Shown piece by piece: positions 1,813 to 40,971 of a stretch of DNA of 64,000 bases. Numbering within the stretch: the stretch's first letter is position 1; every line of letters starts with the position of its first letter. Location: positions 267,108 through 331,107 of the forward strand of contig JBJCIZ010000028.1 in assembly GCA_051294375.1 (NCBI GenBank). The letters run 5' to 3'. Source of the DNA: Paraspadella gotoi (taxonomy: Eukaryota > Animalia > Chaetognatha). Below the pieces are notes generated by a model, which was not told where the DNA came from, searched no databases, and saw only the letters and a program-made list of their open reading frames with translations. A program made the translations under genes and the position numbers.

Positions 1813-2059
1813 CTTTCGTTCTTAAATCTCGGCATCTTCTTCTCTCCAATCGCGATTCCCATCGGCCTGCGCGTCGGCGACCATCTTCAATCCACATCGG
1901 CGTCGCCGAGGAATCGCACTCAGGCACCGCGGAGGCGCCGAGGACGACCACCGACGGGTCGGAAGGACTGCAGGTCGGCGGAGTGATTATTGACAGGAGA
2001 ACAATTGTAAAAATCAAAAATAGAGATGAGGTTAGTGTGATCTTAGATTTGGTATTCAT
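1813..2059 (-). CDS. Second copy of cassette V1 (duplicated segment)
   Basis: ORF 1808..2059 matches 32813..33091 apart from indels and substitutions. Confidence 0.6.
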
Positions 2060-4923: not shown

Positions 4924-5008
<85 letters not shown>

Positions 5009-6259: not shown

Positions 6260-6459
6260 CTCTTTTTCATGAAAAGAGTTCGACCGCGCCCCGACAGATT
6301 CCGCCTCAAACAATGTGACAACGAGACACTAGACTCCAAAAACTAAATATCCACAAAGCTACGAATATGTGAGTCAGATGAGCGTTTTTGCGTAGGACTT
6401 TTAATTTTATTTTTTACGATCATAGTTTCAAGTTTTGTGAGAGAGGAAGAGAGAGAAGA

Positions 6460-9400: not shown

Positions 9401-9668
9401 TTTATCTAATTCATTGGTATTAGAAACACATCGTTTTATACAGTAATTTCATTTTAATGTTTTCGCGAATTTATTCCAATCTGTAGTTTTAGAGTAGCTT
9501 GGTGTGTTTATAATATTTAAAGGTAAAAAGTCGTAGAATGGGCAAATGATTGATCTACGTCATCTAGGACCGTACTGGATTCAATCTTTGTGACAGACTG
9601 GACCCGTCGTAAGACGATATCCAAGACATTTGCTTCACCATTTGACTTACTAATGTATTGTAGAAATG
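6460..9668 (-). mobile_element. Insertion with degenerate non-LTR (LINE) reverse-transcriptase remnants; repeated at 16500-19708
   Basis: Absent from the 34140-34160 copy. Minus strand shows TGPD..FLK...EIIDPL...YRKGD..PEN (8405-8704) and VSAIY..KAF (~8035-8070), in the order of LINE RT motifs PGPDG, KKGD..NYRPI and AIYLDFSKAFD. Confidence 0.5.
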
Positions 9669-10950
9669 TAGAGAGAGAGAGGAGAGGTTTCTCGTTTGAC
9701 AAGAAAAAGAATTCGGATAAAAGGAGATGAGGGGAGGGGAAGGAGGAGGAGGAGGAGGAGGAGGAATTGAAGCAGGAGGTCAAGGACGTAGAGAGACAGA
9801 CAGATGCACATATATACATACAGACAAATAGCGTAATAGATATAGAAAAATAAGTTTTAAATACAGTTTGTGAGAGAGAGTTTAGATTGTTATGAGCTTG
9901 ATACTAAAAAAGAGATACAGGTTGACACTTAACTGTTGTACTAAAGCAAGTTTCAAGAGATAGATAGATATATAGATAGATAGACAGAAAGAAACACAAA
10001 CTGTACCACAGTACAATCAGTTTCTAAGAATCACTCAAATTTTAATGACCCTAGCAGGCACGCAGCATAAATTTAAAAAAAAATCTCGTTTTAAAAATAA
10101 TAAAAACTTTCTCAGCAACTCACTCATGCGAAAAACCCTCACCTTTTCCGCGTTCAAGGACGACGACGGGTAAGCGTCTCTCTCTCTCTCAGCCTTACCT
10201 TTAGGTAAGTCTACTTTTCTGGAAATCGTCGTCGTCGTCGTCGTCGTCGTCGTCGGTCTCGTTATAAAAGAAGCGACGCGTCTGGGATTCGAACCCTCAA
10301 ACTTCAGGATTAAAATATGGGAAGATTTTTCGGTTTCATCGTCGTCGTTTTCGTCGTCGTCGTCGTCGTCGTCGTNNNNNNNNNNNNNNNNNNNNNNNNN
10401 AAAAGGCTAACTAGTGATCCATAGTTGACAATTACAAAATTCGGCTTTAAATGATTTTTGGAGTGTCTTTGGTAGCAAAAGGAAGTTGCTAATGCGAGAG
10501 AATGTGGAATAGAGGACGAGTAGAGACGCCCTAACGTGAAAACTAAGTGGTCTTTCTCTCTCTCTCTCTCTCTCTCTCGAAACAAAAGAACAATCGGCGA
10601 GATGAAAAATGAGGAAAATAAAAGGATTTTTTGGAAAATTAACTAAATGAATATGACACGATTCACATTAAAATCCAAGATCACTGTAATATACATAAGT
10701 CTCAACTTTTTATTCGACAAAATTTTATTAAGATAATAACCAAAAGAAAAAATGATGATAAAAAATCTTATTTAGGGGACTATCAATTTAAAATACAAAT
10801 ACAATAAACCAAATCAAAATATTTGAAACGTATATAGTACAGAGTTTCAAAAGAACTGCCGCTTTGCTATGATACATTCAGGCGTTGAGATGGATGCATC
10901 TGTCAGGTTTGAACAAAACGACAAAACAAAACGAAAAAAAAAGTTCGCAC

Positions 10951-11193
10951 CTGTCATCCTTAAATCGCGGCATCCGCCTGATTCCGATAGCTATCCCCTG
11001 ACTGTCGTCTTGACCCGACGACTTTTCTCTGCCACAAAGGATTTTCGGACGAAAGGCAAGTGAATTCAACTCTGTCTCCCTTTGTGACAACTGTCGTCCC
11101 GCTCTCCCTCTGGCGTCTCGCTCTCATTCGCGCCGCAAAGGAGGAAGAAAACGTGGAGCGAAAAAATCGCGAGCAAAAGTCGACACGAAGCAT
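10951..11193 (-). CDS. Third copy of cassette V2 (exact duplicate of 911-1153)
   Basis: Identical ORFs at offset +10040. Confidence 0.5.
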
Positions 11194-11852
11194 AGTTATC
11201 TATTTTAACTATTCTTTAATTAGTTTAAATTATTTCTGTTGATTCTTTGTTTATTTTCAAGGTTTTGTTAGATTATAAATGAACATTCTACTTTAAAAAA
11301 ATCTGAGAGTTCTTCAGAAAGCCCTTGGGCCTCGGTCTTAGAAAAAAAAAGACAGGTAGAGACATCTGCCGACTTTTCTGCGAAAACAAATGAACTCTAA
11401 TTGGGACAGATTTGGTAAACAATTAAGGTTAAAAAACTGTGTCAGGTTGAGAGAGAGCAAATGGTTTCAGAAGAGCAATCATCTGACTTTTCTGTGAATG
11501 GCTGTTGGAGTGATATTTGGAATCGCGAGATAATTGTGAAAATAATTAAGACGAATCACACCAGAGGAAATACTCGTTATAAAATCTCATACATTTAACT
11601 GTCATATCAGTGAGAGAACCTGAAAGTAAGAAATAGTTTTATGTTGTTTCTTACAACAAAAAATTTGGACATTCCAAGCATAAAACTAATTGAGAGATGA
11701 ACTTTGAAAAATTTTAGGGACTTTTTTTGGTACATTTTTTAACAAAAAATCCGCTGGGCTTACAATAAAAAAAACGGACTCCGGGCGGGAATCCAATAAA
11801 GACTCTACGTGGCTTCCAGTTTTATGAACCTCACCTCGAACTAAACCTTAAC

Positions 11853-12099
11853 CTTTCGTTCTTAAATCTCGGCATCTTCTTCTCTCCAATCGCGATTCCC
11901 ATCGGCCTGCGCGTCGGCGACCATCTTCAATCCACATCGGCGTCGCCGAGGAATCGCACTCAGGCACCGCGGAGGCGCCGAGGACGACCACCGACGGGTC
12001 GGAAGGACTGCAGGTCGGCGGAGTGATTATTGACAGGAGAACAATTGTAAAAATCAAAAATAGAGATGAGGTTAGTGTGATCTTAGATTTGGTATTCAT
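11853..12099 (-). CDS. Third copy of cassette V1 (exact duplicate of 1813-2059)
   Basis: Identical ORF at offset +10040. Confidence 0.5.
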
Positions 12100-14963: not shown

Positions 14964-15048
<85 letters not shown>

Positions 15049-19980: not shown

Positions 19981-20014
19981 GAGATAGATAGACAGATAAA
20001 CAGATAGATAGATG

Positions 20015-20085
<71 letters not shown>

Positions 20086-20098
20086 ATAGATAGATACA
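19981..20098. repeat. (GATA)n microsatellite (also 34440-34550; shorter at 9957-9985)
   Basis: Direct observation. Confidence 0.95.
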
Positions 20099-20552
20099 GA
20101 AACAGAAGACACAAACTGTTACCACAGTACAATCAGTTCTAAGAATCACTCAAATTTTAATGAACCTAGCAGCACGCAGCTTAAATTTATAAAAAAAAAT
20201 CTCGTTTTTTAAAAATAATAAAAACTTTCTCAGTCAACTCACTCATGCGAAAAACCTCACCTTTTCCGCGTTCAAGGACGATCGACGGGTAAGCGTCTCT
20301 CTCTCTCTCAGCCTTACCTTTAGTAAGTCTACTTTTCTGGAAATCGTCGTCGTCGTCGTCGTCGTCGTGTGCGGTCTCGTTATAAAAGAAGCGACGCGTC
20401 TGGGAATTCGAACCCTCAAACTTCAGGATTAAAAGTATGGAAGTTTTTTCGTTTCATCGTCGTCGTTTTCGTCGTCGTCGTCGTCGTCGTCTCGACGAAG
20501 CGTTTGGAATCAGCACCGATCAAAAGGTGATTGGATATGGTGAGAGAGAGAA

Positions 20553-20615
<63 letters not shown>

Positions 20616-21295
20616 AAGAGTTTTTAGTTTTAAGAACCTTCAAACTCGAATGAAAGATCTATTTCCGGTAAAAAAACGACAATAACACATATTAGGTCAT
20701 GTCACGCATCATGGTTGTGTGACTGAGGTAACCTAAACCTAATTAGAAATTAGATCTATAAAACTGATTTGCATATTGCAGTACAATGTCGTTTAATCTG
20801 TAATTTGTTTTTTTATTTTCAAAAACCCTTGGAAATAAGTTTGTCGAATAGAGTTAAACTGAGAATCCCCGTCCACTATCCAGAACAAAAATTCAGAGGG
20901 ACTTTTCACGTCGCCAGAATTCGGTGACCGTTACACAAATTGGTCCAACGACTTAAGATCCGAAATGGCATAATTTAATGACGTCCAAAGAATAGTCAGT
21001 AAATTATGTCAGTATGTCTCTTACGTCATTTTATATCTTTATATCATTTGGGTCATTATAGCCATTACATGATTATGACTTTTATGTCAATTTATGTCAT
21101 TGTGTCATTTTCGGTCATTACATCAATATCTCTTTTACGTAATTTTACGTCATTATGTCATTTTGGGTCATTATAGTCAATACGTCATTAGGTATTTTAC
21201 GTCATTTTATGTCATTTTGGGTCATTTTAGTCATTACGTAATTATGTCTTTTACGTCCGTCCATTAATCCGACTGTCCGTCCACCGTCTTCAGAT

Positions 21296-23343
21296 CATAA
21301 CGATTGCTAATTTTTTTTTTTTTTATCTTAAATGTTTCCATCCACGCGACAGAAAGAAACTTATTACTCGACGACCTCAAAGACTTTGAAAAGAGAGAAG
21401 TGGCTTCGCCCAGGAAAAGTAAGTTGCATTTATTTTGCGTCTGAAATTCAAGTCTTTTCGGTAAGCATATTTACGTCGCAGTGACTGCCTTATTATGTGT
21501 ATTTCTTGTGACATGACATAACATGACAGGACGCGATATGACATGACTACATGACTAAAATAACTTTCTTATTTGTATATTTATGACACGCACTGCGTCG
21601 GAATTCCGTCTTTTTATTCTTTTTAGTTTTTTTTGAAATTCTGAAGGCGGCGCAGCAGTCCTTTAGATTTGAGGTTTTTTTGTTTTAACAAATGAGCAAC
21701 AGACCGACGGACAGACATATCGACGGACCGATCGAAAAGTGACTTATAGAGTTGCTCCGCGAGTACTCGCGACGAAACTAAAAACTAGGTTAAGTTTTGG
21801 CCTTAGGGATTGAAATAGAGGTTAGGGTTATAAATTAGGTAAGGGACTTAATTTAGGATTAGGATAGCGATTTAGGATAGTGATTTAGAGTTAGGGATCA
21901 AGTAAGTATAGAGGGATAAACTAAGTTTCGGGATGAAGGAAAGGGATATGAGTTGTTTTCGGGAAATAGTGTCAGCTAAAAATACATAAGTATAATAGGA
22001 AATTCTATTAAAAAATATTAGGTTACGTCGGATAATGAAGTTTATTCTTATATTTTTTTCGAATATAGTATAATTCTTGGTTGAAAAAGTCAGCCATACT
22101 AAAACGTACGATAATAAAACGTAAAAAAAATATTATCGATTAAAACGATTCCATTTCAATCCAACTATAAAAAAAAATATTTTGTTAACTTCTCTCCCAA
22201 CTTAGTCTGCGACATTCAGCTGAAGAATCGAATTTATCCTGGAAACGACGTAGGTCACATGACCACTCTTAAGGTTTGGTGGAAATCTCCCAAAAGTCAG
22301 TGGAATCGAATTCGAAGAGAAAATGTGGAGGAATGTCGGAGACTTTGTGAAGACAATCCGGAATGCAATGGTCAGTGTGAAAATGTGAAATTTGTGAACG
22401 GGAATCGTGATTGCGTGAAATGGTGACTTCGTGAGTTGTGACTGTCGATGATTCATTCATTCGTTCATTCTTCATTCATTTCGTACATTCTTCATTCATT
22501 TCGTTTATTCTTCATTCATTTCGTTCATTCTTCATTCATTTCATTCATTCTTCATTCATTTCGTTCATTCTTCATTTGTTCTTAATTTAACTTTCACAAA
22601 CATTAAAAAAAACAAAAGACTCTTAGTTCCCGATTCCGCCGCTTCGTCCTCTTCAGGCGCCACCGTCGACTACGACGTCAAATGTTGGCTCAAGAGTAAA
22701 TTTTCTGGGTACAACAAACAAAAGGCGTCGACTTCGCTCCAGTGCCGACCAGAGTCCCCGGTAGCACCGCTCGGTTTTAAGTGGAGAGAGAAGTTTTTAA
22801 CAGGATTTCTGGTGAAATAAGAATTTGAGTTAATTGTTTTCGTCACGACTTTATTACTTAAATTTTTTTTTTCGATCAACCGTTGACCTAATTTATTATA
22901 ATAATCGTTGTTCAGATTTAAAACGAAAATTTTTTTGTTTGTTTTATTTACAATAAAACAGACATGTTTTGACTCTTTTTTTCGAGTCCTTATCAGCGCA
23001 ATGACTCTAAAAAAATGTCCGTTTTTGTTGTAAATAAAAAACATCGTTGTCGAAACGAAAAAACTAATTTTAGTTCTAAATTATCATTATTAATTATTAA
23101 TTATTACGTTCATAAACATAAAATCAGGCGAGGATTGTTGGAAACCCTGCGACGCCGGCGGACTCTGCCCGCCGTCCGCCTCCACATCCGCCGCCGCCGA
23201 TAACGAAGGCGGAAACGCCGGGAAACGAGACGCCGCCGCCGGAAAGGCCGATGCCGTCGCCGGAAGAGAGAATTTGGCTCTCGGCAAAAACACCTGCTCG
23301 TCGTCGCTGGGGTGGAAAAGATCCTCATCGCAGTATTTGACGG
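21296..23343 (+). pseudogene. Truncated duplicate of the first four exons of the lectin gene
   Basis: Near-identical to 35778-37819 (PAN1 exons, GEDCWKPC, ENLALGK). Similarity stops at ~23543. Probably an assembly or haplotype duplicate. Confidence 0.6.
22450..22576. repeat. 21-bp TTCTTCATTCATTTCGTTCA minisatellite (also 36932-37058)
   Basis: Direct observation. Confidence 0.9.
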
Positions 23344-23819
23344 GTAATATTTAATATTTATTAATTTATTATTATTTATTAGATTATTAATTTTTAGAAA
23401 AAAAAATTTCATTAGATTAAATGTTTAAATTTGTAATAGGTAAAATGATTAAATAATTAATTTATTTATTTATTAATAAATTAATTTTAAAAAATTGACT
23501 GGTCCGATTAATTGTTTGATTATTAATTTTTGCGAATCATTTAAAAGAAGAGAGATAAGAATTGTCTACGAATGGTAAGTGACATGGATTGGAAAAAACA
23601 TAATTCAAATCTGTTCTTTAATAAGGTGGATAAGGAAAGTAAAGGGAAAGGAAAAAAAAAAAAGGGAAGATAGAGACAAGAGAGCGATGAGCGCTGGAGA
23701 GTGAAGGAGATTCCCTAACTTCTGCGCCAATAAAAAAGACCCAAAGATGAAGATGTCAACAAATAAAAAAAATGTGCAATTTGGCCACAAGTAGTCATCC
23801 TTCATAATCGCTTTTCACA

Positions 23820-24030
23820 CCCGGGGCGGTACTGGGGCGGCCCCGCGGGGTGGCTCCGCGGGGCAGGCCCCGAGGGCCAGGCCCAATCTTACCGCCTAGG
23901 GGCGGCCCCTGTAGCTCTTTTTTGGAGCCCCAAGGGGCCACTCAGGGGGAATCCCAGGGGCTAGAAAAACCTTTGCCCCCTGGGGCTACCGCCCAGGGGG
24001 ATGGATTTCCTGCCCCGGGAAACGGCTCTC
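23820..24030. repeat. GC-rich GGGGC/GCCCC element, imperfect inverted partner of 26295-26545
   Basis: GGGGCGGTACTGGGGCGGCCCC versus the reverse complement of GGGCCGCCCCTAGAGCCGCCCC; MITE/hAT-end-like. Confidence 0.45.
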
Positions 24031-24184
24031 TCTCCTTCCTATTCTCTCTCTTCCCCTCTACTCTCATCTCTCTCTCATCCCTCTCTCTCCTTTTTCTCTC
24101 GTCTAATTTTCTATTTTCAATCTTTCATTACAATAAAATATAAAAATGAAATAATATTTTTTCAACTTCAAAATAATGCAATCA

Positions 24185-25430
24185 ATGACCAAATAGCTGC
24201 ACCATACCAATCTTGCATAATTTTGGTCAGCCTTGCAGTAATTTAGTCAATTGACCATAAATTGTCAATGACATAGGAATTGGTCAACTGATATAATTTA
24301 ATCAAACTTTTAAAATTTGGTAAACTTTTATAAAATTTTGGTAAACTTTCATAATTTTGGTATTTTTTTTAATAATTTAGTTAACTGCTTAATTTGGTTA
24401 ACGGCTTCATAAATTGGCTAAACCTTTTTTATAATTTGGAAAACTTTAATAATTATTGGTAAACTTTCATAAATTGGTAAAACTTTCATAATTTGGTAAA
24501 CCTTTCATAATTTAATCAATTGCATATATTAAATCAACTCGCATAATTTGGTGCCAACTTGCATAATTTGGTCAAATTTCATAGATTTATCAATTGGCAT
24601 AGGATTGGTCAACTGGATAAATTGGGTTAATTTGCTTAATTTATTCAACAGTCAAATTTGTCAACATTAGATAATTTGGGTGGCCTTGGATAATTTGGTC
24701 AAATTAATTAATTTGGTCAAAACAATCAACTTAACAATTATGCTAATTAATAATTTTAATCCAATAGAAATAAAAAAAGTAACTTTTGTATTCAATTAAA
24801 ATCTACTTTCATTTTTCTACCCACCAAACAAAATTTATCTCTTAAAAATTTTATAGAATAAGAGTAGGATGGTTAATTTTTTAATTCACTTAATAAAATA
24901 ATAATTAAAAATATTTAATTGATTAATTAATTAATATCAGTTTTTAAAGTCCATCCCATATTAGTATTAAACTCCTAATTATTCGTGATTAAATATAAGA
25001 TGGATTGGCATAAATTGGTCAACTGGATATAAATTGGTTAATTTGCTTAATTTATTCAACAGTCATAATTGGTTCAACTTAGATAATTTGGACAAACTTG
25101 GATAATTGGTCAAATTAATTAATTTGGTCAACAATCAACTTAACAATTAGCTAATTAAATAATTTTTATCCAATAGAAATAAAAAAAGTAACTTTTGTTT
25201 TTCGCATTAAAACTTACTTTCATTTTTCTACCCACAAAAAAAATTTTAAATCTTAAAAATTTTATAAGAAAAAGGTAGGATGGTTTAATTTTTTTTAAAT
25301 TCACTTATAGAAAATAATTAATTAAATATTTAATTGAATTAAATTATTAATATCAGTTTTAAGTCCAATCCGCATATTAGTATTAAACTCTAATTATTCG
25401 TGATTAAAATAGAATGGATAGGCATAAAAT
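24185..25430. repeat. AT-rich minisatellite (~21-bp CATAATTTGGTCAACTT unit) with an ~415-bp internal tandem duplication
   Basis: Repeated cataatttggt(c/a)aact; 24590-25000 recurs at ~25005-25425. Confidence 0.8.
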
Positions 25431-26294
25431 TTTGTGTGTTGGGTAGAAAAGTATGTGATTGAGCTAAGATATAAATTTTGGTCACTCTCTCTCGTCAATC
25501 GTGCAGCCTCTACTTAACAACGTGAGTTCATCTTAAGCAAAATCTAACAAACTAACAATTATTAATTACAAATCTTAAATAAAATAAAATTTATTTTACG
25601 ATGTAGAACTCGTTTAATGTTTGATGAATAGTTTTTAATTGTTTTTTTGGGGGGACTCCATAATTTCACTAAGTAGGTCTGGTCAGTCACTTGCCATTAT
25701 TTGTTTGGTGATTTATTTAATTTTTTTTTTAAAATATCAAATTATGAATATTTTTTTTAAAAAATTATGTCTCTCTATCAGTCTAATCAGTAGTCATCAA
25801 AAAGAAAAAAAAATTAAAAAAAAAAGATAAAAAAGACAAAAAAAAGAAGACAAGATGACTGATTAGCTTTTTAAACCAACTAAATTTGTATGGCTACGTC
25901 CTACATTGTTTGTTAAAACTTATTATCTATATCCTTTAACTGAAAATAAAAATAATTGGGTTAAAAAATACAAAATATTATAATTTTTTAGATAAAATAT
26001 GGAATAAATGAGTTAACAAATAATTTGAAAAATATGTATATTATTTAATTCCAGTTACATACAACAAGTCTTGAAGAGAGAGAGAGAAAAAAGATCTATA
26101 GAGAGAGAAAAAAAGAGAGAGAGAAGAAAAAAGAAAAGTGAATGAGAAAAAGAGAGAGAGAGAAAAAGAGAAGAGAGAAAAGAAAAGGGAGAGAGAAAGA
26201 GAGAAGAGTAACAGACAGGATAAAATATTCTCAGATAATAATAACATAGTCAGAAGTATATTTCTCATCTAAACGTTTGCTCTCTCTTTAACTC

Positions 26295-26545
26295 GCCCTG
26301 GGGGAGCCAGTTTTTTTGCTCCCCAAGGGGTTACCCCCAGGGGCAAGACCCTTTTTTTGGCCCCAGGGCGGCTAAGCAAATTAGGGGCGCCCCTAATAGA
26401 CCCGAAATATTGGCCCCGAGGGGGAAACCCCCCTGGGGCGGCCCCCTGAAGGCAATTCCAGAGGGGGCGCCCCTCAAATGACTTTTGCTGCTCCCCTGGA
26501 AATAGTCCTGCCCCTGGGCCGCCCCTAGAGCCGCCCCGCGGGCGG
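26295..26545. repeat. GC-rich GGGGC/GCCCC MITE-like element
   Basis: GC island of CCCC/GGGG runs ending CTAGAGCCGCCCC; no convincing ORF. Confidence 0.45.
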
Positions 26546-26639
26546 AGAGGATTTGGAGATGACATAATCTCTTTTTTGCCCAAATCCGTAGATCTTTCAA
26601 GTGTACCCCATCTTCTAAAAATGAAAACTCAGTCCAAAC

Positions 26640-26857
26640 CGCTGTCATCTTCGAATCTGGGCATCTTTTGATTTCCGAAAGCCATCCCGTTCAAATCCTC
26701 ATTCCCAGAATTGTTTTAAAGAGCGCACATCGGGTCACGGTTGGAATTGCAAGAAAACTGCAATGCGGATCCAACTGGTAGCGAATTGATCGCCGTTGCA
26801 AACGAAGGATGCAAAGTCAAGTCGGTCAGAATAACGAGGAAGAGAAAAAAACTTCAA
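26640..26857 (-). CDS. Variable cassette V8: signal peptide + half Ig-like domain
   Basis: (M)KFFLFLVILTDLTLHPSFATAINSLPVGSALQFSCNSNRDPM....GNEDLNGMAFGNQKMPRFEDDS, then GTTTGG. Start reads TTG; indels. Confidence 0.7.
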
Positions 26858-27148
26858 TTTTGACGATTTTTTAAAATTTGTTATTTTGTAAGATCCTTTA
26901 TTGGCATAATGGCTTTAACAGGACGAAACCCAAAAGGACTGAAAAGACTACTGAGGAACCTCGAGTAAAAAGAAGAGAATCACGCATTTTGAAAACAAAG
27001 ACAATCGCTTGAAATGACCCTATTCATATTGAAGAATAATTAAAATCTGAAAACACTTCGCATAACGTCAACCTTTTTCACGAGATATATTTTTCGGTTA
27101 AAAGGTTTTTCTCGTTCAAATTTTTGCCAAAATTTCTGAATCGGCCCC

Positions 27149-27231
<83 letters not shown>

Positions 27232-27332
27232 AAAATTTTTGCGCCAAATAAGGAAATGAAAACATGAACAATGAACAAATAGTAAAAATCAGAAAAAAAA
27301 AATTCCATTATGAAAAGGAAACGAACTCTAAC

Positions 27333-27555
27333 CTGGTGAACCTTGATCCTGGGCATTTTTTGACTCCCGATCGCCAATTCCCATTCAAATCCTCTGGTCC
27401 CGATTTTTAAAGGGAGCCACATCGGAGTCACGTTATTCGAAGGGCGCAAGAAAAAACTGCAACGCCGATCCAAATGGTCGCGATAACGGTCTCCGTTGCA
27501 ACGAAAAATAGAATCAAGCCGATCAAAAATAACAGCAAACGAAAAAAATATTCTT
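27333..27555 (-). CDS. Variable cassette V7: signal peptide + half Ig-like domain
   Basis: FFRLLLFLIGLILFFVATETVIA leader (ATG reads AAG: error or mutation), GSALQF..., SNNVTPMWL..., LAIGSQKMPR; CAG|GTTAGA donor. Confidence 0.65.
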
Positions 27556-28030
27556 TTGAATTATTCTTTTTTAAATGTTTTTGAAGAACCGTAAACTATG
27601 GAAGTTTGGAGAAACTGACAACTGAAGGACTACTGAGGACTGCCTCGTGTCGAAAAAAAAATAATGGAGGACTGTTGAAAACAAAAGTCAATCGTCGCAG
27701 TTTATTTTGGGTGGCTATTTTGTAAAAATACTGCAACGAGAAAATGCTAGCAACGGCAAAGACTTAAAAATTCAAAAACGTCAATCCCATTTTTAGAATA
27801 ATTTTTTTAAGGTAAAAAAATTGAAATAATAGGCAACATAAACGGACAAATTTCGCGAAGGAATGTTTAACTAAGAAAATGTTAGGAATTTCAAACTAGC
27901 AACGTTGCCTTAATAATTTTATATTAAATTTTAATTATTAGTGAAGCGTTTTTTTTTGATTGCACTGTAGTTGAAAGATTTTGGCCGAAAAATAAGATCG
28001 GAGCGTACGAAGGGAAGAGGGAGAGAGAAA

Positions 28031-28073
<43 letters not shown>

Positions 28074-28087
28074 AGAGAGAGAGAAGA

Positions 28088-28138
<51 letters not shown>

Positions 28139-28153
28139 ACAAAGAGAGAGAGA

Positions 28154-28193
<40 letters not shown>

Positions 28194-28460
28194 AGAGAGA
28201 GAGAGAAAGAGACAAAAGAGAAAGAGAGAGAAAAGAGAAATAAAAAAACACTCCATAAAATAATTCGGGAGCGTACGAAATAAGAGGGAGAGGGAGAGAG
28301 AAAAGAGAAGGGGGGGAGAAGAGAGAGAGAGAAGAGAGAGAGAGAGAGAAGAGAGAGAGAAGAGAGAGAGAGAGATTTTAAATTCGATCCAAAATAGAAA
28401 AATAAAAGACTCCATAAAAAGATAATCTTCAGAAAATTTTCCAGCAAAAAATGTCTAAAC

Positions 28461-28684
28461 CTGTCGTCTGTAAATCTCGGCATTTTTTTATTCCCAACAG
28501 CCAATCCATTCGTTGCTTCTTCGCCGAATTTTTTAAAGAACCAAATCGCCGGACAATTTAGGTGTAGACAAAGAAAAACTGCCAAGGCGGACCCAGGTGG
28601 TCGAGATACGATCCCCGTCGCAACGAAAGAATCAAAGTTATCAATCGATCAGAATTAACAACCGCGAACAAAAATAATATTCAT
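28461..28684 (-). CDS. Variable cassette V6: signal peptide + half Ig-like domain
   Basis: MNIIF... leader, VATGIVSRPPGSAL..., PAIWFFKKFGEEATNGLAVGNKKMPRFTDDR; GACAG|GTTTAG donor. Confidence 0.7.
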
Positions 28685-29016
28685 TTTTTTTTAAATTATT
28701 GATTGTTGTTTAAGATCACGATGGAAGTTTGGAAACCTGAACAACGACGAATAGATAGACTTAACTGAAAGGACTATGTAGGACACAAACCCTCGAGAAA
28801 AAAAAAATGAAGCACAGATTTTAAAAACAAAAAGGCAATCGTTGGGAAATCAAACCTGATAAATGCCTGCTGTGCAAAAAAGTTTTAAAAATATTAAAAC
28901 ATTCAAAATTATTTTATTTCGTCAAAAGTAATTTAATTTTTTATAAAGTTACTTAATTTCTTTCGTTTACCACGTCCGAGATTTTTCCGCAAAAAATAAA
29001 ATTCAGATATCAAAGT

Positions 29017-29088
<72 letters not shown>

Positions 29089-29163
29089 AGAGAAGAGAAA
29101 ACCAAAATTTTTTTGGGCCATTTAGACGACCAAAATAGTTCAGATATTCAAGAGCGTACGAAA

Positions 29164-29221
<58 letters not shown>

Positions 29222-29346
29222 AAACCAATTTTTCCCTCCCAATTTAGACGACCAAAAGATTAAATTAAAAACTCGAAAGCTCCTTATATAAACTCCAAGA
29301 ACCTCATTAATTTTCCCCGCCAATCAAGTCAAAGTCTTAGACTAAC

Positions 29347-29563
29347 CTGTCGTCTTTTGAATCTGCGGCATCTTTTGACCTTTCACCGCCATTTCCATGG
29401 TATCATCCTGAACCAAATTTTCTTGAAAGATCCACATTGGCGACACGTTTGAATTGCAAGAAAACCGCAATGCGGATCCATGGTCACGATTTTCGATCCC
29501 CTTATGCAACGAGCATCAACGTGAAGTGAGCAGAATAATTAACCCACGACAAAATAAATTCAT
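29347..29563 (-). CDS. Variable cassette V5: signal peptide + half Ig-like domain
   Basis: ATGAAT start and hydrophobic leader, then GIENRDHGSALRFSCNSNVSPMWIFQENLVQDDTMEMAVKGQKMP..KDDR; GACAG|GTTAGT donor. Confidence 0.7.
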
Positions 29564-30128
29564 TTTGGATTTTTTTTGGAGGAAATTTATCTATCGAAGT
29601 TTGGCAAAATGAGAACTGAAAGGAAATGAGAAGACTAGTGAGGACACCTTGAGACGCAAAGAAAGTATGAACAAGACTTTGAAAAACAAAAGACAATCGG
29701 CCCTTTGTTTAATTTTGTCTCAAATTTTAGTACCGTGATTTGGATGCGTCCTAGTGAAATAGTACCTATATTTCACGAAACCCTGAAAAAAGCTACAATA
29801 CAAACTTTTTCCTCAATTTATTTATAAACTAATGATAAATATTTTCTAAATTTGAAACTAAAGAAATAAACGGTCGTTTTTGCATTAAATAATAATCAGT
29901 AAGACTTCTGCAGACGAAAATAAATTACATTTGAGGTAAAATAAAATTATTCCAACATTCCCAATAATATGAATATGTTTTATTTTGAGACAGGGTGTTT
30001 TCGATGAGCTTTTTAAAATATATCAACTTTTAACGTGAATAAAAACATATAAAAAACAGAAAACAATGAAACCAAAACAACGACAAAAAACAAAAAGAAC
30101 AACCTATCCCCCATCCAATTTTTAAAAC

Positions 30129-30376
30129 CTGTCGTCCGTAAACGCATGGACTGCCTCTTCTCTCGCAAAAGCCAAAGACAGACAACTGATCGTCGGCTTC
30201 CTTGTCGGGTTTCCAAATCGGCGGCGCGTCGGTAAAAGTCGCAACGAAAGAGACCGACGAACCGACCGGCGACCGGCGAAGTCCTTTTCCGCCGTTGCGG
30301 CGAAAAACGAGGCGAAGACTTCGCCTTTGGCGGCGAAAAATACGGCGAAGACCAAGGGCGCGAAGAAGAGCGTCAT
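30129..30376 (-). CDS. Variable cassette V4: signal peptide + half Ig-like domain
   Basis: MTLFFAPLVFAVFFAAKGEVFAS signal-like start; second frame RSPVGSSVSFV..FTDAPPIWKPDKEADD; ends FTDDR with GACAG|GTTTTA. Confidence 0.65.
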
Positions 30377-31168
30377 ATTTTAAGGAAAAGTCCTTAAAAT
30401 TTTGGCGAATTTTGCTTATGTTTATCTTTTGAGAGTTGGAGAGTGGAATTGGGCACGATAGTAAAGAAAAAGACAAAGTAGAGACCCCTGTGCTTCCCGC
30501 TTGAAGAATTTAAAAAAAAAAGAGGCAAGAAACTTTTTGCCCTGTAAGGGGTTTTATTGTTCAAGCAAAAGTTCAGACGAAAGAAAATATTTTTTTTTAT
30601 CATTTTCTCATTTGTATAAAATTTATTTATTTTGCTGCAAAAACGGATGTTTCTTTGCGCAGTCAAAATGAAGATATTGACAAATTCGTCAATAATAAAG
30701 AAATTGATAAGTTCGTTTTTTAAAAAAAAATTATAAAAATTAAAATGCATCAACAAACAACGTCAAAACAAAGATAATAAAGTTAGGCACCGAATGATAT
30801 CGCTAAAAATAGATCAAAGGAGAGATAAGTTTTTAGGAATAACCGACCGAACTGAAATAGAAACGGACAGACCAGACTTATAAAAGGACCAGATTGACCG
30901 ACAGACTGACTAATAAAGCAGACCCAACAGACTGAATTATAAAAAAGACTGGCAGACAGACTGATAAACAGACGGACAGACTCTTTGACATCTAGATGTC
31001 AAAAATGGGCCAAGTATAATCTTGACAAGAATTCAAATCACTTTTGCGCAATATCTTTTGTTAAATATCTTTTGTTAAATAACACCCTGATAGTCAGAGG
31101 AGAAACTAACTCTCTGAGAAGACTCTTGTAGCGGTACGTACGGACTTCCATTCGCCACAACTCCTCAC

Positions 31169-31363
31169 CGCGTATCTCGAACCAGGATTTCCTTTTATCC
31201 ACGACGGCGATGCTAACGCGCCACGTCGGGACTTTTTGCCAAATCGGCGAATCGCGGAGGAACAGGAGAAGGAAATATCGGCGCCGGAAGAAACGGGGGC
31301 CGAACGACGACGATAGTACCCCATTTGCATAAATTAGCCAGGGACGATTACGCAGTCCGTCAT
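31169..31363 (-). CDS. Variable cassette V3: divergent or degenerate half Ig-like domain
   Basis: ...SSGADISFSCSS.../PIWQKVP....SIAV.DKRKSWFEIR, then GTGAGG donor at the equivalent position. Start uncertain; frameshifted. Confidence 0.55.
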
Positions 31364-31876
31364 CAACTTTGATACTTTATGTCTTTTTTGATTTGCAAAT
31401 GAAAGATTTAAATGCGAGAGAAAATGGATAAAAAGTGGACGAGTAGAGAACGCAATGGAAGTTTTTTGAAAAAAAACTAAGTGGTTCTTTCTCTCTCTCT
31501 CTCGAAACAAGGAACAAGCGGAGAGATGTGCAAATTCCTAATTATTTTTTTGTTTGTTTTGTTTTTTTATTCGAATTAACGAAATGATTGTATAATGTTG
31601 ACATAATAGGCATTTATTGATACCTATTATTCATATTATTCGAAATTGGGAAAATACCTGATGGTCATACAAGAGACGGATTCGAGATAAATTAAGAGAC
31701 AATGAAGGGAAAAAACTTTATTGGACAAACAAATTTAAGAAACATTACACAATAAATCTAAATCAAAGAACAATATTTTGGAAAGTTGTAACGATGTAAG
31801 TACAGTAGAGTATCAAAAAAATGATTGCAAAGAAGGCAGCCTGTCCATAGATAAACCAAACAAAAAACAGACGCAC

Positions 31877-32124
31877 CTGTCATCCTTAAACCGGGCATCC
31901 CGCCTGACGCCCATCGCGATGCCTGACTGTCCGTCTTGACACCCGACTTTTCTCTGGCCACAAAGGGAGTTTCGGACGAATAGGCAATTGATTCAACCTC
32001 TGTCTCCCTTCGTGATCAATTTTCGTCTCGCTCTCCCTATTTGTCTCGCTCTCATTCGCGCTCGCAAGGACGGAAGAAAACGTGGTAGCGAAAAAATCGC
32101 GAGCAAAAGTCGACGACGAAGCAT
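31877..32124 (-). CDS. Variable cassette V2: signal peptide + half Ig-like domain
   Basis: Consensus with the copy at 911-1153 (frameshifts corrected): MLRRRLLLAIFSLHVFFLLCGA-NESET...VVTKGDRVEFTCLSSENPLWQRKVV..QDDSQGIAIGIRRMPRFKDDR, ending GACAG|GTGCG. Confidence 0.75.
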
Positions 32125-32816
32125 AGTTATCTATTTCTAATAATATTTATTTAGTTTAAAATATATATTTTGATTTCTTTGTTTCAATTTCAAAGATTGT
32201 TTTTCATGTGTAAAAGTTCAATTATCCTTTAAAAAATATTTAGACGACGGAGTCGTTTGAAGAGTTCTTCAGAAGCCTTGGGTTTGGTCCTTGGAAAAAG
32301 ACAGGTAGAGACTATCTGCCGTTATTTTACAATAAACAAATGACACTAATTGGTAAAAATTGGTAAAAATAGAGGCTTGAAATGAAAAAGAGGAGATACC
32401 GGTGATCAAAAGTCTTTTAATTTTTAACAGTTAGGGCAATTTGAGTGATATTTGGAATAGCGATAAATAGTGATTAATTTGGACGAATCACATCCTGGTA
32501 ACAGTAAGAAAGCTTCTTTATTTCTCTTGAACAAACTAACGATACTAACATAAACATTACACAAAAATTATTTGTAGAGGGATGTTAAAATGATGATTAA
32601 AAATGATTAATGATAAATGAGGATTAAAATGATTTTTGAAAAAATCATAGGAGCTTTTAGTACATGATTTCCGAACTTTTTGATTTTATGCTTTTATAGT
32701 TCATTTTTTAACCCAAAAAACTGTTAAACTGCGTCGCTGCTTACAAAACAAGGAAATAAACATTGATCGGCTCAACGTGGTTCAGTTTTATGAACCCTCA
32801 CCTCGAACTAACTTAC

Positions 32817-33091
32817 CTTTCGTTTGTCCTTAAATCTCGGGCATCTTCTTCTCTCCAAAGTTCGCGATTCCCGGCACTGCGGCTGCGTCGTCGGGCGACC
32901 ATCTTCAATTGCTTGACACCATTCCGGCGTGCCGAGGAATCGACCTCCAGCACCGCGGAGGCGCCGAGGACGACGACCGACGGGTCGGCATTAGGACTGC
33001 AAGGGTCGGCGGCGTGAATTATTGACAGGAGAGACGATGTAAAAACCAAAATAGAGATAAGAGTGACTGTGATCTTAGATTTGGTATTCAT
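32817..33091 (-). CDS. Variable cassette V1: signal peptide + N-terminal half of Ig-like domain
   Basis: MNTKSKITVTLISILVF..LLSII signal-like start. Consensus with the copy at 1813-2059 gives DPSVVVLGASAV[LP]ECDSSATPMW..K...DGIAIGEKKMPRFKNER, followed by AG|GTAAGT. Indels present. Confidence 0.7.
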
Positions 33092-34466
33092 TTTTTTAGT
33101 TTTATTTATGATTTATTTTTTATATTTCGTTTGTTTTTATTATTGTTTCTTCTTTTTGACAAACAGATAAGTTATTTTTGCTGTAAAATTTATTTTCTTT
33201 TCAATCAACAACTACTTGTGAGGAATGAGAATTCTGCGGAAGAAAAGCGACGAGTAGAGTCCGCTCCACCCGCCGGTGGGAACAGCAAAAAAATTGTTTT
33301 AAAAACAAAGAGAGACAGTAGCGCTGGGGCGTCAAGAGCTTAATTAAAAGTTTTGTGTCGACCAGGCTTTGCATTTAGAAATTAATTCTTCATGTCAAAT
33401 CGAGTTTTTAACTACAATCATTATAAACCGGCTGACAAAGCTCAATTAACTTCGTCTTGTATATTTACTTATTTTTTCAAGAGCTAATTTTTCGATGATT
33501 CGTGTCTCGTCTGGCTCAATCCGTAACGAATGACGTGACATCAGCGTGGGACAAACGGACGTATCAGTACCAAGGCGTGATTTGGATATGGAAGTATTTT
33601 CCCGAGTCATACTTCTGTCGGGCACACGCCTTGTCCTGCTAACGATACCTAAAATGTATTCTTACTTCGTAGGCAATAATATAATTTAATGTAATATTAT
33701 TTTTTCCTTCTTGTGTTTTGTTTTTAAAATGTGGTCGATGTACAATTGTACATGTTTAAATAAATAATTTAATAGATAAATTTAAATGTTTCTTAAACAC
33801 AATCACAAAAAAAAATGTTTGCCCGTTCACCACAGACCGCAATATATTGAAAACTCTGGTTCAAGTTAAATCAAATTGTTTTTTATTACTACTCAAATAA
33901 AAAATAAACAATTTGAGTTGTTTTTTTTTTTTTCGATCTCACAGGATTTAAGTCTTTTGTTATGAAAAAGAGTTCGGACGGCCCGACAGATTCGCCCTTC
34001 TGAGAAGAGATTTTCAAAAACAAAAAATAAATTTAAAATGTACTCGAATTTATACGTTTTGTAGACTTTTCAATTTTATTTTTACGATAAGACATCATAG
34101 TTTTTCCCAAGTTTTGTGAGAGAGGAAGAGAGAAGAGGAAGAGAGAGAGAGAGAGAGAGAGAGAGAATGGAGGAGAGTTCTCTGTTGACAAGAAAAAGAA
34201 TTCGGATAAAAAGGAGATGAGGAGGAGGAGGAGGAGGAGGAATGAAAGCAGGAGGTCAAGGACGTAGAAAGACAGACAGATGCAACTATATACATACAGA
34301 CAAATAGCGGTAATAGTATAGAAAAAATAAGTTTTTAAATACAGTTTGTGAGAGAGAGTATTAGATTGTTTATGAGCTTGATACGTAAAAAAGATGATAC
34401 AGGTTGACACTTAACTGTTGTACTAAAGCAAGTTTCAAGACAGATAGATAGAGATAGATAGATGTA

Positions 34467-34519
<53 letters not shown>

Positions 34520-35030
34520 GTAGATAGATAGATAAAGATAGATATAGACAGAAAGAAACAAACTGGTACCGCTAAGTACAATCAGTTTCTAAGAATCACT
34601 CCAATTTTAATGACCCTGAGTCAGGCCGCAGCATAAATTTAAAAAAAATCTCGTTTTAAAAATATAAAAATAAATAAAACTTTCTCAGCAACATCACAAT
34701 CATGCGAAAAACCGCTCAACCTTTTTCCGCGCTTCAAAGGCCGACGACGGGTAAGCGTCTCTCTCTCTCTCTAGGCCTTACCTTTAGGTAAGTCTAACTT
34801 TTCTAGGAATCGTCGCATCGTCGTCGGGTCGTTGCGTCGTCGTCGGTCTCGATTAATAAAAGAAAGCGACGCGTCTGGGATTCGAACACCTCCAAACTTC
34901 AGATTAAAATATGGGAAGATTTTTTTTCGGTTTCATCGTCGTGTTTTCCGGGTCGTCGGTCGTCGTTCGTCGTCGTCGACGAAGCGTTTGGAACATCGGC
35001 ACCGATCGAAAGGTAGTTGAATCATATGGT

Positions 35031-35094
<64 letters not shown>

Positions 35095-35777
35095 AGAGAG
35101 AGGAGAAAGAGTTTTTAGTTTTAAGAACCTTCAAACTCGAATGAAAGATCTATTTCGGTAAAAAACGACAATAACACATATTAGGTCATGTCACGCATCA
35201 TGGTTGTGTGACTGAGGTAATAAACCTAATTAGAAATTTATAATTTAAAACTGATTTGCATATTGCAGTACAATGTCGTTTAATCTGTAATTTGTTTTTT
35301 TTATTTTCAAAAACCCTTGGAAATAAGTTTGTCGAATAGAGTTAAACTGAGAATCCCCGTCCACTATCCAGAACAAAAATTCAGAGGGCTTTTCACGTCG
35401 CCAGAATCGGTGACCGTTACACAAATTGGTCCAACGCTTAAGATCCGAAATGGCATAATTTAATGACGTCCAAAGAATAGTCAGTAAATTATGTCAGTAT
35501 GTCTCTTACGTCATTTTATATCTTTATATCATTTGGGTCATTAATAGCCATTACATGATTATGACTTTATGTCAATTTTGTCATTGTGTCATTTTGGTCA
35601 TTACATCAATATTCTTTTACGTAATTTTACGTCATTATGTCATTTTGGTCATTATAGTCAATACGCATTAGTTTTACGTCTTTTAGTCATTATGTCATTT
35701 TGGGTCATTTTAGTCATTACGTAATTATGTCTTTTACGTCCGTCCATTAATCCGACTGTCCGCCCACCGTTCTTCAG

Positions 35778-38700
35778 ATCATAACGATTGCTAATTTTTT
35801 TTTTTTTTATCTTAAATGTTTCCATCCACGCGACAGAAAAGAACTTATTACTCGAACGACCTCAAAGACTTTGAAAAGAGAGAGTGGCTTCGCCCAGGAA
35901 AAGTAAGTTGCATTTATTTTGCGTCTGAAATTCAAGTCTTTTTCGGTACAATATTTACGTCGCATGACTGCCTTATTATGTGTATTTCTTGTGACATGAC
36001 ATAACATGACAGGACGCGATATGACATGACTACATGACTAAAATAACTTTCTTATTTGTATATTTATGACACGCACTGCGTCGGAATTCCGTCTTTATTC
36101 TTTTTAGTTTTTTTGGAAATTCTGAAGGCGGCGCTAGCATTCCTTTAGATTTGAGGTTTTTTTGTTTTAACAAATGAGCAACAGACCGACGGACAGACAT
36201 ATCGACGGACCGATCGAAAAGTGACTTATAGAGTTGCTCCGCGAGTACTCGCGACGAAACTAAAAACTAGGTTAAGTTTTGGCCTTAGGGATTGAAATAG
36301 AGGTTAGGGTTATAAATTAGGTAAGGGACTTAATTTAGGATTAGGATAGCGATTTAGGATAGTGATTTAGAGTTAGGGATCAAGTAAGTATAGAGGGATA
36401 AACTAAGTTTCGGGATGAAGGAAAGGGATATGAGTTGTTTTCGGGAAATAGTGTCAGCTAAAAATACATAAGTATAATAGGAAATTCTATTAAAAAATAT
36501 TAGGTTACGTCGGATAATGAAGTTTATTCTTATATTTTTTTCGAATATAGTATAATTCTTGGTTGAAAAAGTCAGCCATACTAAAACGTACGATAATAAA
36601 ACGTAAAAAAAATATTATCGATTAAAACGATTCCATTTCAATCCAACTATAAAAAAAAATATTTTGTTAACTTCTCTCCAACTTAGTCTGCGACATTCAG
36701 CTGAAGAATCGAATTTATCCTGGAAACGACGTAGGTCACATGACCACTCTTAAGGTTTGGTGGAAATCTCCCAAAAGTCAGTGGAATCGAATTCGAAGAG
36801 AAAATGTGGAGGAATGTCGGAGACTTTGTGAAGACAATCCGGAATGCAATGGTCAGTTGTGAAAATGTGAAATTTGTAAACGGGAATCGTGATTGCGTGA
36901 AATGGTGACTTCGTGAGTTGTGACTGTCGATGATTCATTCATTCGTTCATTCTTCATTCATTTCGTACATTCTTCATTCATTTCGTTTATTCTTCATTCA
37001 TTTCGTTCATTCTTCATTCATTTCATTCATTCTTCATTCATTTCGTTCATTCTTCATTTGTTCTTAATTTAACTTTCACAAACATTAAAAAAAACAAAAG
37101 ACTCTTAGTTCCCGATTCCGCCGCTTCGTCCTCTTCAGGCGCCACCGTCGACTACGACGTCAAATGTTGGCTCAAGAGTAAATTTTCTGGGTACAACAAA
37201 CAAAAGGCGTCGACTTCGCTCCAGTGCCGACCAGAGTCCCCGGTAGCACCGCTCGGTGAGAGAGAGAGTTTTTAACAGGATTTCTGGTGAAATAAGAATT
37301 TGAGTTAATTGTTTTCGTCACGACTTTATTACTTAATTTTTTTTTTCGATCAACCGTTGACCTAATTTATTATAATAATCGTTGTTCGAGATTTAAAACG
37401 AAAATTTTTTGTTTGTTTTATTTACAATAAAACAGACATGTTTTGACTCTTTTTTTCGAGTCCTTATCAGCGCAATGACTCTAAAAAAATGTCCGTTTTT
37501 GTTGTAAATAAAAAACATCGTTGTCGAAACGAAAAAAAAAACTAATTTTAGTTCTAAATTATCATTATTAATTATTAATTATTACGTTCATAAACATAAA
37601 ATCAGGCGAGGATTGTTGGAAACCCTGCGACGCCGGCGGACTCTGCCCCCGTCCGCCTCCACATCCGCCGCCGCCGATAACGAAGGCGGAAACGCCGGGA
37701 AACGAGACGCCGCCGCCGGAAAGGCCGATGCCGTCGCCGGAAGAGAGAATTTGGCTCTCGGCAAAAAACACTGCTCGTCGTCGCTGGGTGGAAAAGATCC
37801 TCATCGCAGTATTTGACGGGTAATATTTAATATTTATTAATGTATTAATATTTATTAGATTATTAATTTTTAAATTTTAAAATTAAATAAATGGTTAAAT
37901 TTATAATAGGTAAAATGATTAAATAATTAATTTCTTTATTTATTAATAAATTAATTTAAAAAATTGACTGGTCCGATTAATTGTTTGATTATTAATTTTT
38001 GCGAATCATTTAATATCCAATTTTTTTTTACAAATTCAATAAATGATTAAAACGTAACAAAACGAAAGTCAACATGTCTGTAAATGTAATGGGATGCTTT
38101 TGGAAAATGTGACCCCCGCCTTCCTCTCAACCCCGCCTTCAGACGGCGTGACCTGCGTCCGGGACTCCAGCGCCGCCGAACGCGTCGTCCAGACGAAGAA
38201 AGAGTCAGACCCTTGGGTTCTGATCGATCTCTGGACGCCGGCCAAGGTTTTGTTAATGAAATTGGTACAACTAATAAGAAAATTTTAAGAAAATACTTAA
38301 GGGAGTGGTCTTTTCATACAATTGAAACATTCTTTGAAATATTTTCCACTTCATTGATAGGGAAGCCAGGTACTCTGGGAGTGAATAAACGGGACTGTGA
38401 GAGAGTCTTGATTGAAAGCTTACAGGGACCTGCTATGTCATTATCTTGTAAGAGTGATGGAGGCCTTAAACCACCAAAGCCTGTCCAAAGTCAGGGGCAA
38501 GTAGCTTATTTATTAAATGAATGGATAATTTTTATATTGGTTGTACCAATTTCATATTTATTAATAAATAAATAACTATTTGTTCATTCATTGGTTTATA
38601 TATTTGTCGGTTCTTTAGTTTATTTTATTTGTTCATTTGTTTTTAATCTGTATTTGTTCGATTGGTTGTTTCTTTGTTTGTTTTTAATTTATTCATTTAT

Positions 38701-38999: not shown

Positions 39000-40971
39000 C
39001 CTCCCCCTATCTCTCCCTCTTCTTGGTTCCTCCCCCTCTTCCTCTCTCTCCCCCTCCTCTCCGCCAACACCCTCCCACTTCTAAAAATAGACGGCCTCGT
39101 CGTCGTGCCACAACCGACTCGACGACGATCTTCAAAAACTTCAGCTCCGCGGCCGCTAGCAGATTCAGATCCGCGTCGGCTCCAGCGCGGGGGCGTCCCT
39201 GCGGGAGAAATCCCGCCGTCTGCCGGCCTGCGGGGAATACGGGCTGGACCCGAGAAGACCGAACCGTGGATTTGTCGAGGCCCTTGGAAAGGGAGGTGGG
39301 AGAATTCGGTTTATTTTAGTCGGTTGCACTCAATAATAGTAACTTTCGGTTCCGGGTCTGTCGGTCGGCCGTCCCTCGGTGCTGTTACAATACGTTATAA
39401 TTGCTATAACAACTTCGAGTTTAGTAACTTATCAATTAGGTTCATATTCGTAAGGAGGTAAGGTCACGTAAGATGACTAACTTGCATAATATATCATGCT
39501 TGTGAAGTACGTGATCACCATAAAAAAGGCGATCACATGAAACCCAGAAATTTAATATTTGGCTTCGATTTTCGTTGCAACTTTTGTTAATTTATTTGCT
39601 GACTCGAAATAATATGTGACTACTAGCGCTGCCTTTTGTTTTNNNNNNNNNNNNNNNNNNNNNNNNNAATATCCAATTTTTTTTTACAAATTCAAAAATG
39701 ATTAAAACTGTAAAAAACGAAAGTCACATGTCTCGTAAATGTAATGGGATGCTTTTGGAAAATGTGACCCCCGCCTTCCTCTCAACCCCGCCTTCAGACG
39801 GCGTGACCTGCGTCCGGGACCCAGCGCCGCCGAACGCGTCGTCCAGACGAAGAAAGAGTCAGACCCTTGGTTTCTGATCGATCTCTGGACGCCGGCCAAG
39901 GTTTTGTTAATGAAATTGGTACAACTAATAAGAAAATTTTAAGAAAATACTTAAGGGAGTGGTCTTTTCATACAATTGAAACATTCTTTGAAATATTTTC
40001 CACTTCATTGATAGGGAAGCCAGGTACTCTGGGAGTGAATAAACGGGACTGTGAGAGAGTCTTGATTGAAAGCTTACAGGGACCTGCTATGTCATTATCT
40101 TGTAAGAGTGATGGAGGCCTTAAACCACCAAAGCCTGTCCAAAGTCAGGGGCAAGATAGCTTATTTATTAAATGAATGGATAATTTTTATATTGGTTGTA
40201 CCAATTTCATATTTATTTAATAAATAAATAACTATTTGTCATTCTTGGTTTATATATTTGTCGGTTCTTTAGTTTATTATTTGTTCATTTGTTTTTCGTT
40301 TTTTAGTAAAATGGTATTTTAAACATGAAGAAGAAATGAATCGGAATTGGAATTACAGTTCTTGTTAATAATGAAAAAACTAAATAAAAAATGATTAATT
40401 AATTAATTTACAGTTTTTGTTAGTTTATTTTTCGTTATATTCACATTATATCCACATTTCTTCTTCTCTTTTCCACACTTCGTCCACATTTCCTGTGTTC
40501 TTTTCCAAACTTCGCCCACATTTCCTCTTCTCTTATCCACACTTCGCCCACATTTTCTCTTCTCTTTTCCCCACACTTCCCTCCACACTTCCCCCCCTGT
40601 TTAGATTCGTCTTCGTCGTCGCCCCGGGTCAGACTCGCTCCCTCACCCTCTGCGAAATCACGGTCCACCCTTACCAACCTCCGCCGCTCCTTCACCCGAC
40701 TCCAGCGACCGACCTGGCGCTCCATCGACCCGCCTGTCTTTCGTCGCCCGTCGACTGGAGCGAACGACGCTCGGCCGACCGAGCGACCGACGGGCGAGCC
40801 GACACGATGGCGGTTTCGGCGGCAAAGGCCGGCCAGGGGGCGTGGTGGTACGTGGATTTGGGCAGGTGATTAAAGCAGGGACCGGATATCGGATTAGAAA
40901 AAGTAATATTAATGGAATTAATAGAATTATGACGTAATAATTACTACTATATTTAAGCAACACTACTAGAT

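Follow-up and report, generated by a model that had tools for sequence, protein, structure and literature searches.

In the chelicerate sDscam-alpha and sDscam-beta genes, tandem 5' cassettes, each with its own promoter and start codon, encode an N-terminal variable immunoglobulin (Ig) part and are spliced to common exons, whose region carries Ig, FNIII, membrane and cytoplasmic parts; a cassette has two exons or four and specifies one complete Ig domain or two, which match Dscam1 Ig7 or Ig7-8 (PMC4835542, PMC5775551). Here we describe a tandem array of eight putative variable first exons, each encoding a leader and what is likely half an Ig domain, in the chaetognath Paraspadella gotoi. The array lies within a stretch of 64,000 nucleotides (nt), hereafter the window (assembly GCA_051294375.1, contig JBJCIZ010000028.1, positions 267,108 to 331,107, forward strand). 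As in sDscam, the cassettes are tandem, 5', preceded by an upstream element, and would encode an N-terminal variable part. Unlike the multi-exon sDscam cassettes with whole Ig domains, each is here a single exon with a leader plus half a domain, and the spacers are empty. No Dscam chain was among the PDB matches with an expectation value (E) of at most 10, for which the 50-column queries were weak.

In vertebrate clustered protocadherins, every promoter has its own variable first exon, and the promoter that is used decides which exon is included (PMC10084454, PMC8787164). A conserved upstream element per cassette is common to both systems, whereas the protocadherin exon is large and encodes a whole cadherin-repeat ectodomain plus a membrane helix; the exons here measure 200-275 nt. 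No cadherin match was obtained for the cassettes. The protocadherin counterpart of the upstream element is the protocadherin promoter element.

The UGT1 and GCNT2 clusters, too, consist of variable first exons in tandem, each under its own promoter, that share the exons downstream (PMC1885805, PMC3325998). Both are enzymes, unlike the half-Ig-like cassettes. Their variable exon is the large substrate-binding half of the protein, not part of one small domain. Insect Dscam1 has arrays of exon 4 and exon 6 variants (PMC1397879). These exons are internal, mutually exclusive and part of one transcript, without leader or promoter, and in this they differ from the first-exon cassettes. A single such Dscam1 exon encodes no more than the N-terminal half of an Ig domain. 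The V segments of jawed-vertebrate Ig and T-cell receptor loci lie in tandem, each with a promoter, a leader and an incomplete V domain that includes both cysteines, and are joined by DNA recombination. Unlike these, the cassettes end at a splice donor and have a single Cys, and the recombination heptamer CAC[AT]GTG was found within 60 nt of none of ten donors.

An earlier note, made from the sequence alone, had likened the logic of the locus to that of protocadherins, UGT1A and sDscam. The likeness holds for the layout, which resembles promoter choice, and fails for the defining exon structures of sDscam and protocadherins. The note knew of no described locus with this layout; in agreement, no array of leader-plus-half-Ig first exons was described in the full-text literature searched, outside which most subscription papers and supplements lie, and the species' genome paper could mention the locus. 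It is a real and probably undescribed variant of the variable-first-exon design.

The cassettes and their common boundary

The eight cassettes, as assembled in the window, and the copies found in a second array are as follows (the slash marks the exon end):

32817..33091, minus strand: c1, with ATG, leader and half Ig-like domain; donor AAG/GTAAGT
31877..32124, minus strand: c2; donor CAG/GTGCGT
31169..31363, minus strand: c3, the most divergent, leader unclear; donor GCG/GTGAGG within the Arg codon
30129..30376, minus strand: c4; donor CAG/GTTTTA
29347..29563, minus strand: c5, first ~50 codons open with short-read gap places; donor CAG/GTTAGT
28461..28684, minus strand: c6; donor CAG/GTTTAG
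27333..27560, minus strand: c7, without literal ATG in the assembly, start approximate; donor CAG/GTTAGA
26640..26870, minus strand: c8, start approximate; donor GCG/GTTTGG
11852..12099, minus strand: c1', second copy of c1 (allele or paralogue), first 60 codons open in one frame
10951..11193, minus strand: c2', second copy of c2, with a 25-residue A'-B-C stretch that gives the only Ig matches in Pfam
10401..10620, minus strand: upstream region of c3', truncated by an N gap at 10376-10400

The eight are paralogous, and a GT follows at every one of the junctions that had been proposed for them. Their spacing, put at 0.7-1.1 kb, measures 693-1128 nt from donor to donor. The claim that the donors are mostly AG/GT, in phase 2 within an Arg codon, was borne out too: AG/GT is found in c1, c2 and c4-c7 (six of eight) and CG/GT in c3 and c8. 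GTTTT-type donors also terminate exons of the neighbouring gene. An own start and hydrophobic leader, attributed to every cassette, could be retained for five (c1, c2, c4, c5 and c6), where a literal ATG precedes the hydrophobic stretch; the region of c7 has no ATG, the sole ATG of c8 lies upstream of its aligned start, and the leader of c3 is unclear. The locus is made up of tandem paralogous exons with a phase-compatible donor and, in five of eight cases, a literal start. An array of at least eight had been predicted; the eight are present, and the copies at 11852-12099 and 10951-11193 and part of a third had been overlooked.

All cassettes as assembled carry frame breaks or stops, and the many indels of the assembly scatter their motifs across several frames. 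Contigs of short reads from four DNA runs (three samples, two studies) were aligned to 29270-34100 only, which holds c1-c5. They differed from the assembly mostly by gaps; over 32796-33262, for instance, there are 44 gaps, and another 12 letters differ. With the gaps placed as in the short reads, c5 has no stop from Met through the hydrophobic leader to GSALRFSC and PMW (~50 codons). The frame breaks look like assembly errors.

A profile built from nine window fragments was compared with 1.84 billion proteins (E ≤ 0.001). Of the fifteen matches obtained, P0013 is a repeat artefact and was discarded; 14 intact homologues remain, each with the single-Cys half domain of the cassettes. All are gene calls without a name, made in ENA assemblies on contigs of 551-1839 nt, and are less than 50% identical to one another by the clustering of the protein library. 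All 14 are open from Met to a terminal Arg, contain a single Cys in their mature half (Cys to Trp, 8; Cys to Arg, 32-35) and carry A-[ILVF]-G and R-F-x-x-x-R; a hydrophobic leader is clear in all except P0008.

Similarity among the 14 stops at the same Arg. The next residue is a stop in eight, Tyr in four, Phe in one and Ser in one, all with codons able to begin with T; two pairs among the 14 are related, so that these boundary cases are not fully independent. This is what a gene caller reading into the intron would give if an AG/GT donor lay in the Arg codon. In the six homologues without a stop, the frame continues for 7-45 residues; these tails are unrelated, and one is a simple repeat. We consider this pattern the strongest support for a donor at the boundary and for a leader and half domain encoded by one exon.

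The boundary was also recovered in the window by frameshift-aware threading of ten cassettes (the eight, c1' and c2') on a profile made from the outside homologues only, with 20 shuffles each. All ten scored 21-86, versus shuffle maxima of -4 to 15. The final residue of the profile fell within 1 nt of the donor in nine of the ten, the exception being c1, whose threading is off by 20 nt; in six (c2-c6 and c2') it straddled the donor exactly, in phase 2. When the homologue profile was run against ungapped frames, c3 and c4 gave the weakest matches (E about 1-2.5). A DNA profile of c1-c4 finds c6 (E = 1e-7), and one of c5-c8 finds c1' (1e-5) and c2' (9e-4); the two groups are homologous, because each finds members of the other type. 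Identity between cassettes is 14-53%, a range lowered by assembly errors. Window cassettes and outside homologues were intermixed in a 50-column tree, from whose weak support and error-laden rows no conclusion was taken.

Likely Ig character and the missing second half

A Cys after G-x4-hydrophobic-x, the Trp and the R-F, the pattern of a V/I-set domain, are invariant in the 14 homologues. We take the motifs to correspond to strands A' to D of such a domain, with the Cys on strand B, the Trp on strand C and the R-F on strand D. One of ten fragments, the 25-residue piece of c2', matched only Ig families in Pfam (Ig_3 and Ig_2, E = 0.12 and 0.15). Among weak PDB rows, 13 of 17 in one search were Ig domains (FGFR, titin, LRIG3, NCAM2) and 7 of 8 in another; many of these rows are the same FGFR. 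AlphaFold models of the half domain alone were uninformative (predicted template modelling scores of 0.29 and 0.19, no strands). The half domain is likely part of an Ig fold. The front half of a V/I-set domain had been called established; the motif pattern and the weak, concordant matches agree with it, and the word is too strong for a best E of only 0.12-0.15.

The second half had been reported missing between cassettes, and indeed none of the seven internal spacers shows any sign of a second exon. They measure 321-764 nt, with a GC content of 0.27-0.36 versus 0.42-0.57 in the cassettes, and no cross-similarity was seen among them, except between c1 and c1'. Private second exons are unlikely, since the spacers are AT-rich and mutually unalike. 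Two candidate sources of a shared exon behind c8 were rejected: GC-rich stretches, which have transposon-like ends, and a 6.8-kb insert, which has no significant Pfam match.

Proposed promoter choice and competing explanations

All eight cassettes are preceded by a conserved element, which is of one of two types:

33248..33259, minus strand: type A element of c1, match to CTCTAC-Y-N1-2-GTC
32310 (c2), 31448 (c3), 30483 (c4), 11361 (c2') and 10525 (c3'), minus strand: starts of the other type A pattern matches
29630..29698, minus strand: type B two-part element of c5, GATTG..TTTGTTTT, then TCCT..TAGTC 49-57 nt later
28840/28783 (c6), 27693/27639 (c7) and 27006/26957 (c8), minus strand: type B pairs, two-part matches

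The six type A matches in 10401-64000 all lie upstream of cassettes, with none on the plus strand and a shuffle mean of 0.10, an enrichment that is overstated because the patterns were written after the sites had been seen. The c1' copy has a variant outside the pattern. The two parts of type B are 49-57 nt apart across c5-c8. Such elements fit core promoters.

We propose, with a probability of about 0.6, that the cassettes serve as alternative first exons, each likely under its own promoter: promoter use would select one of them, and splicing would join it to a shared exon in which the Ig domain is completed. Transcription would start at the upstream element of one cassette, whose donor would become cap-proximal and join a phase-2 acceptor beyond the array, so that the cassettes downstream of it would be skipped. 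The shared exon would supply strands E, F and G and the partner cysteine, and the product would be a secreted or surface protein with a likely Ig-fold domain. Isoforms would presumably differ in strands A', B, C, C' and C'' and in the loops that usually form binding faces. A role in self/non-self or cell recognition is a guess by analogy. The earlier note had put forward the same scheme; the common phase-2 donor (14 of 14 homologues), the seven spacers without a private exon and the conserved upstream elements speak for it in part, and its statement that the Ig domain was established went too far.

Several observations weigh against this proposal. The best Ig match (E = 0.12) is below significance, none of 16 homologue sequences matched an Ig family, one alignment search of PDB returned a single, non-Ig match, and the Cys-Trp spacing of 8 is shorter than in canonical V/I-set domains. 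No D-x-[GA]-x-Y-x-C occurs in the six frames of the whole window, and no Ig match to Pfam was found downstream of c8 in 12871-19710 or 20001-34100, where indels could in both cases hide an exon. What the assembly places behind c8 is a repeat element, then an antisense gene fragment and the 6.8-kb insert. None of the homologues, on their contigs of 551-1839 nt, could be placed in a genomic context that would reveal an array. Word-index searches yielded no homologue, either among longer proteins (0 of 4414 and 0 of 7999 candidates) or among near ones (0 of 8), and the search of 1.84 billion proteins likewise gave no full-length relative. Finally, a pyrimidine run and an AG lie within a few tens of bases behind the upstream element in c1, c2 and c5-c8, an arrangement that also resembles a 3' splice site. 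Apart from these points, context searches gave 0 of 140 in prokaryote genomes and 0 of 77 in viral contigs, and the single metagenome-contig locus (L001) left from 311 pattern matches was rejected as a chance match of 24 residues that lacks both a leader and the 3' motif.

If the run and the AG are what they resemble, the array could be one transcription unit, in which the element would be a branch point plus 3' splice site, and the cassettes mutually exclusive exons that follow one shared non-coding exon, or acceptors of a trans-spliced leader. We judge this quite unlikely, as type A is absent from the plus strand, which bears a gene with many introns, c1 is only about 1.6 kb from the start of a divergent neighbour, and the fixed two-part spacing of 49-57 nt suits a core promoter. 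TCAGT near the element fits an initiator as well. The absence of any back half from the window is compatible with a choice among several back-half exons, to which the front halves would splice in cis or in trans; both parts of the Ig domain would then be variable and would be put together at the RNA level. With the phase-2 Arg boundary in common, any front half would fit any back half, and trans-splicing is reported among sDscam cassettes (PMC9258826). No back-half exon, single or multiple, was found in the window, however, and a single constant region is the simpler and commoner layout (PMC4835542); we regard such combinatorial joining as unlikely. Were it to occur, an invertebrate lineage would build a V-like Ig recognition domain from one of several back halves and a promoter-chosen front half, the latter comprising the leader and the strands that bear two of the three binding loops, as a splice-based counterpart of V-J joining with an origin independent of Dscam, protocadherins and antigen receptors; this, too, is unlikely.

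The frame breaks or stops in every assembled cassette and the lack of a downstream exon in the window, together with a tandem duplication that has a repeat element at its junction, could also mean that an ordinary Ig gene has left orphan copies of its first exon here, most of them dead, or that a real duplication has severed the array from its 3' part. This explanation appears decidedly improbable: the breaks resemble assembly errors and c5 opens with short-read gap places, and the cassettes, though deeply diverged (identities of 14-53%, which errors depress), have kept their motif, donor and upstream element while the spacers are unalignable; the 14 homologues elsewhere are open from Met to Arg. 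That the cassettes encode independent small secreted peptides, or a non-Ig domain whose frame ends at or soon after the Arg, seems very improbable. Eight of the 14 homologues do stop directly after the Arg and no Ig match is significant, but a stop is what AG/GTAA or AG/GTGA yields, the other six run into unrelated tails of 7-45 residues, and the single invariant Cys would stay unpaired.

Should promoter-chosen first exons be confirmed, an unrelated Ig-like family in which variable and shared exons each encode part of one domain would represent a further independent origin of promoter-choice receptor diversity and a new route to many recognition proteins from one gene. It would offer a direct test of a genome-encoded cell-identity or allorecognition code in invertebrates outside arthropods. 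The 14 unnamed homologues indicate a diverse family overlooked by current annotation.

Duplications and neighbourhood of the array

The second array (c1', c2' and the start of c3') spans 10401-12099 and is interrupted by the N gap. Behind c8 follow, in order, a repeat element, a near-identical copy of the 5' part of the neighbour gene (three substitutions in 21501-23300), the 6.8-kb insert and the second array:

23820..26560, strand not given: repeat-rich element whose ends are GC-rich and partly inverted, directly downstream of c8

The two segments concerned, 10401-23544 and 26640-38013, may stem from a recent tandem duplication or may be two haplotypes that the assembly has set end to end; under either origin, the shared downstream part would lie beyond the broken left end. 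No Ig exon was found in the repeat-rich element, which is a possible mis-join point. Over six codons (GIAMGV in c2, GIAIGI in c2'), the two copies differ by four silent and two conservative changes; this small sample suggests selection on the cassette protein.

The 5' part of the neighbour gene occurs at 19710-23544 and again at 34158-38013, near-identical in the polished portion. The c1-c2 spacer (32492-32771 versus 11560-11803) is partly unalignable between the arrays although the neighbour gene is near-identical, which could reflect strong allelic divergence at the array. The 6.8-kb insert (12870-19700), upstream of c1' and absent upstream of c1, resembles a decayed mobile element. Positions 1-335 of the window are a further copy of the c1-upstream region (87% identical to 33672-34037), which suggests another array copy to the left.

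The assembly around the array is poor (indel-rich, broken and duplicated), and the window contains four gaps of 25 N and one of 757 N. Positions 361-9988 recur at 10401-20012 (~10 kb, 99.7%), with the error-rich part letter-identical, an assembly artefact. Over 361-2830 and 10401-12870, all 2470 bases are identical; since this sequence is error-rich, we consider it an assembly duplicate. Another repeat links 38012-38644 with 39668-40296.

Exons in the window DNA are short, introns are AT-rich, and CT microsatellites occur. The neighbour of the array, in head-to-head orientation, is a long gene on the plus strand with PAN, F5/8-type and trefoil domains. The region concerned, 34690-57460, holds one or more long multi-exon genes with PAN, F5/8-type lectin and trefoil domains; its downstream exons have no Pfam match, and one has a GGICGQLS...QPGHLA motif, which is reminiscent of transglutaminase-like proteins. 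An intronless, AT-rich frame of 608 codons with many hydrophobic segments and no Pfam match lies at 61179-63005 (plus strand), and 59467-60596 (plus strand) gives a weak match to an XK-related membrane protein (E = 0.008).

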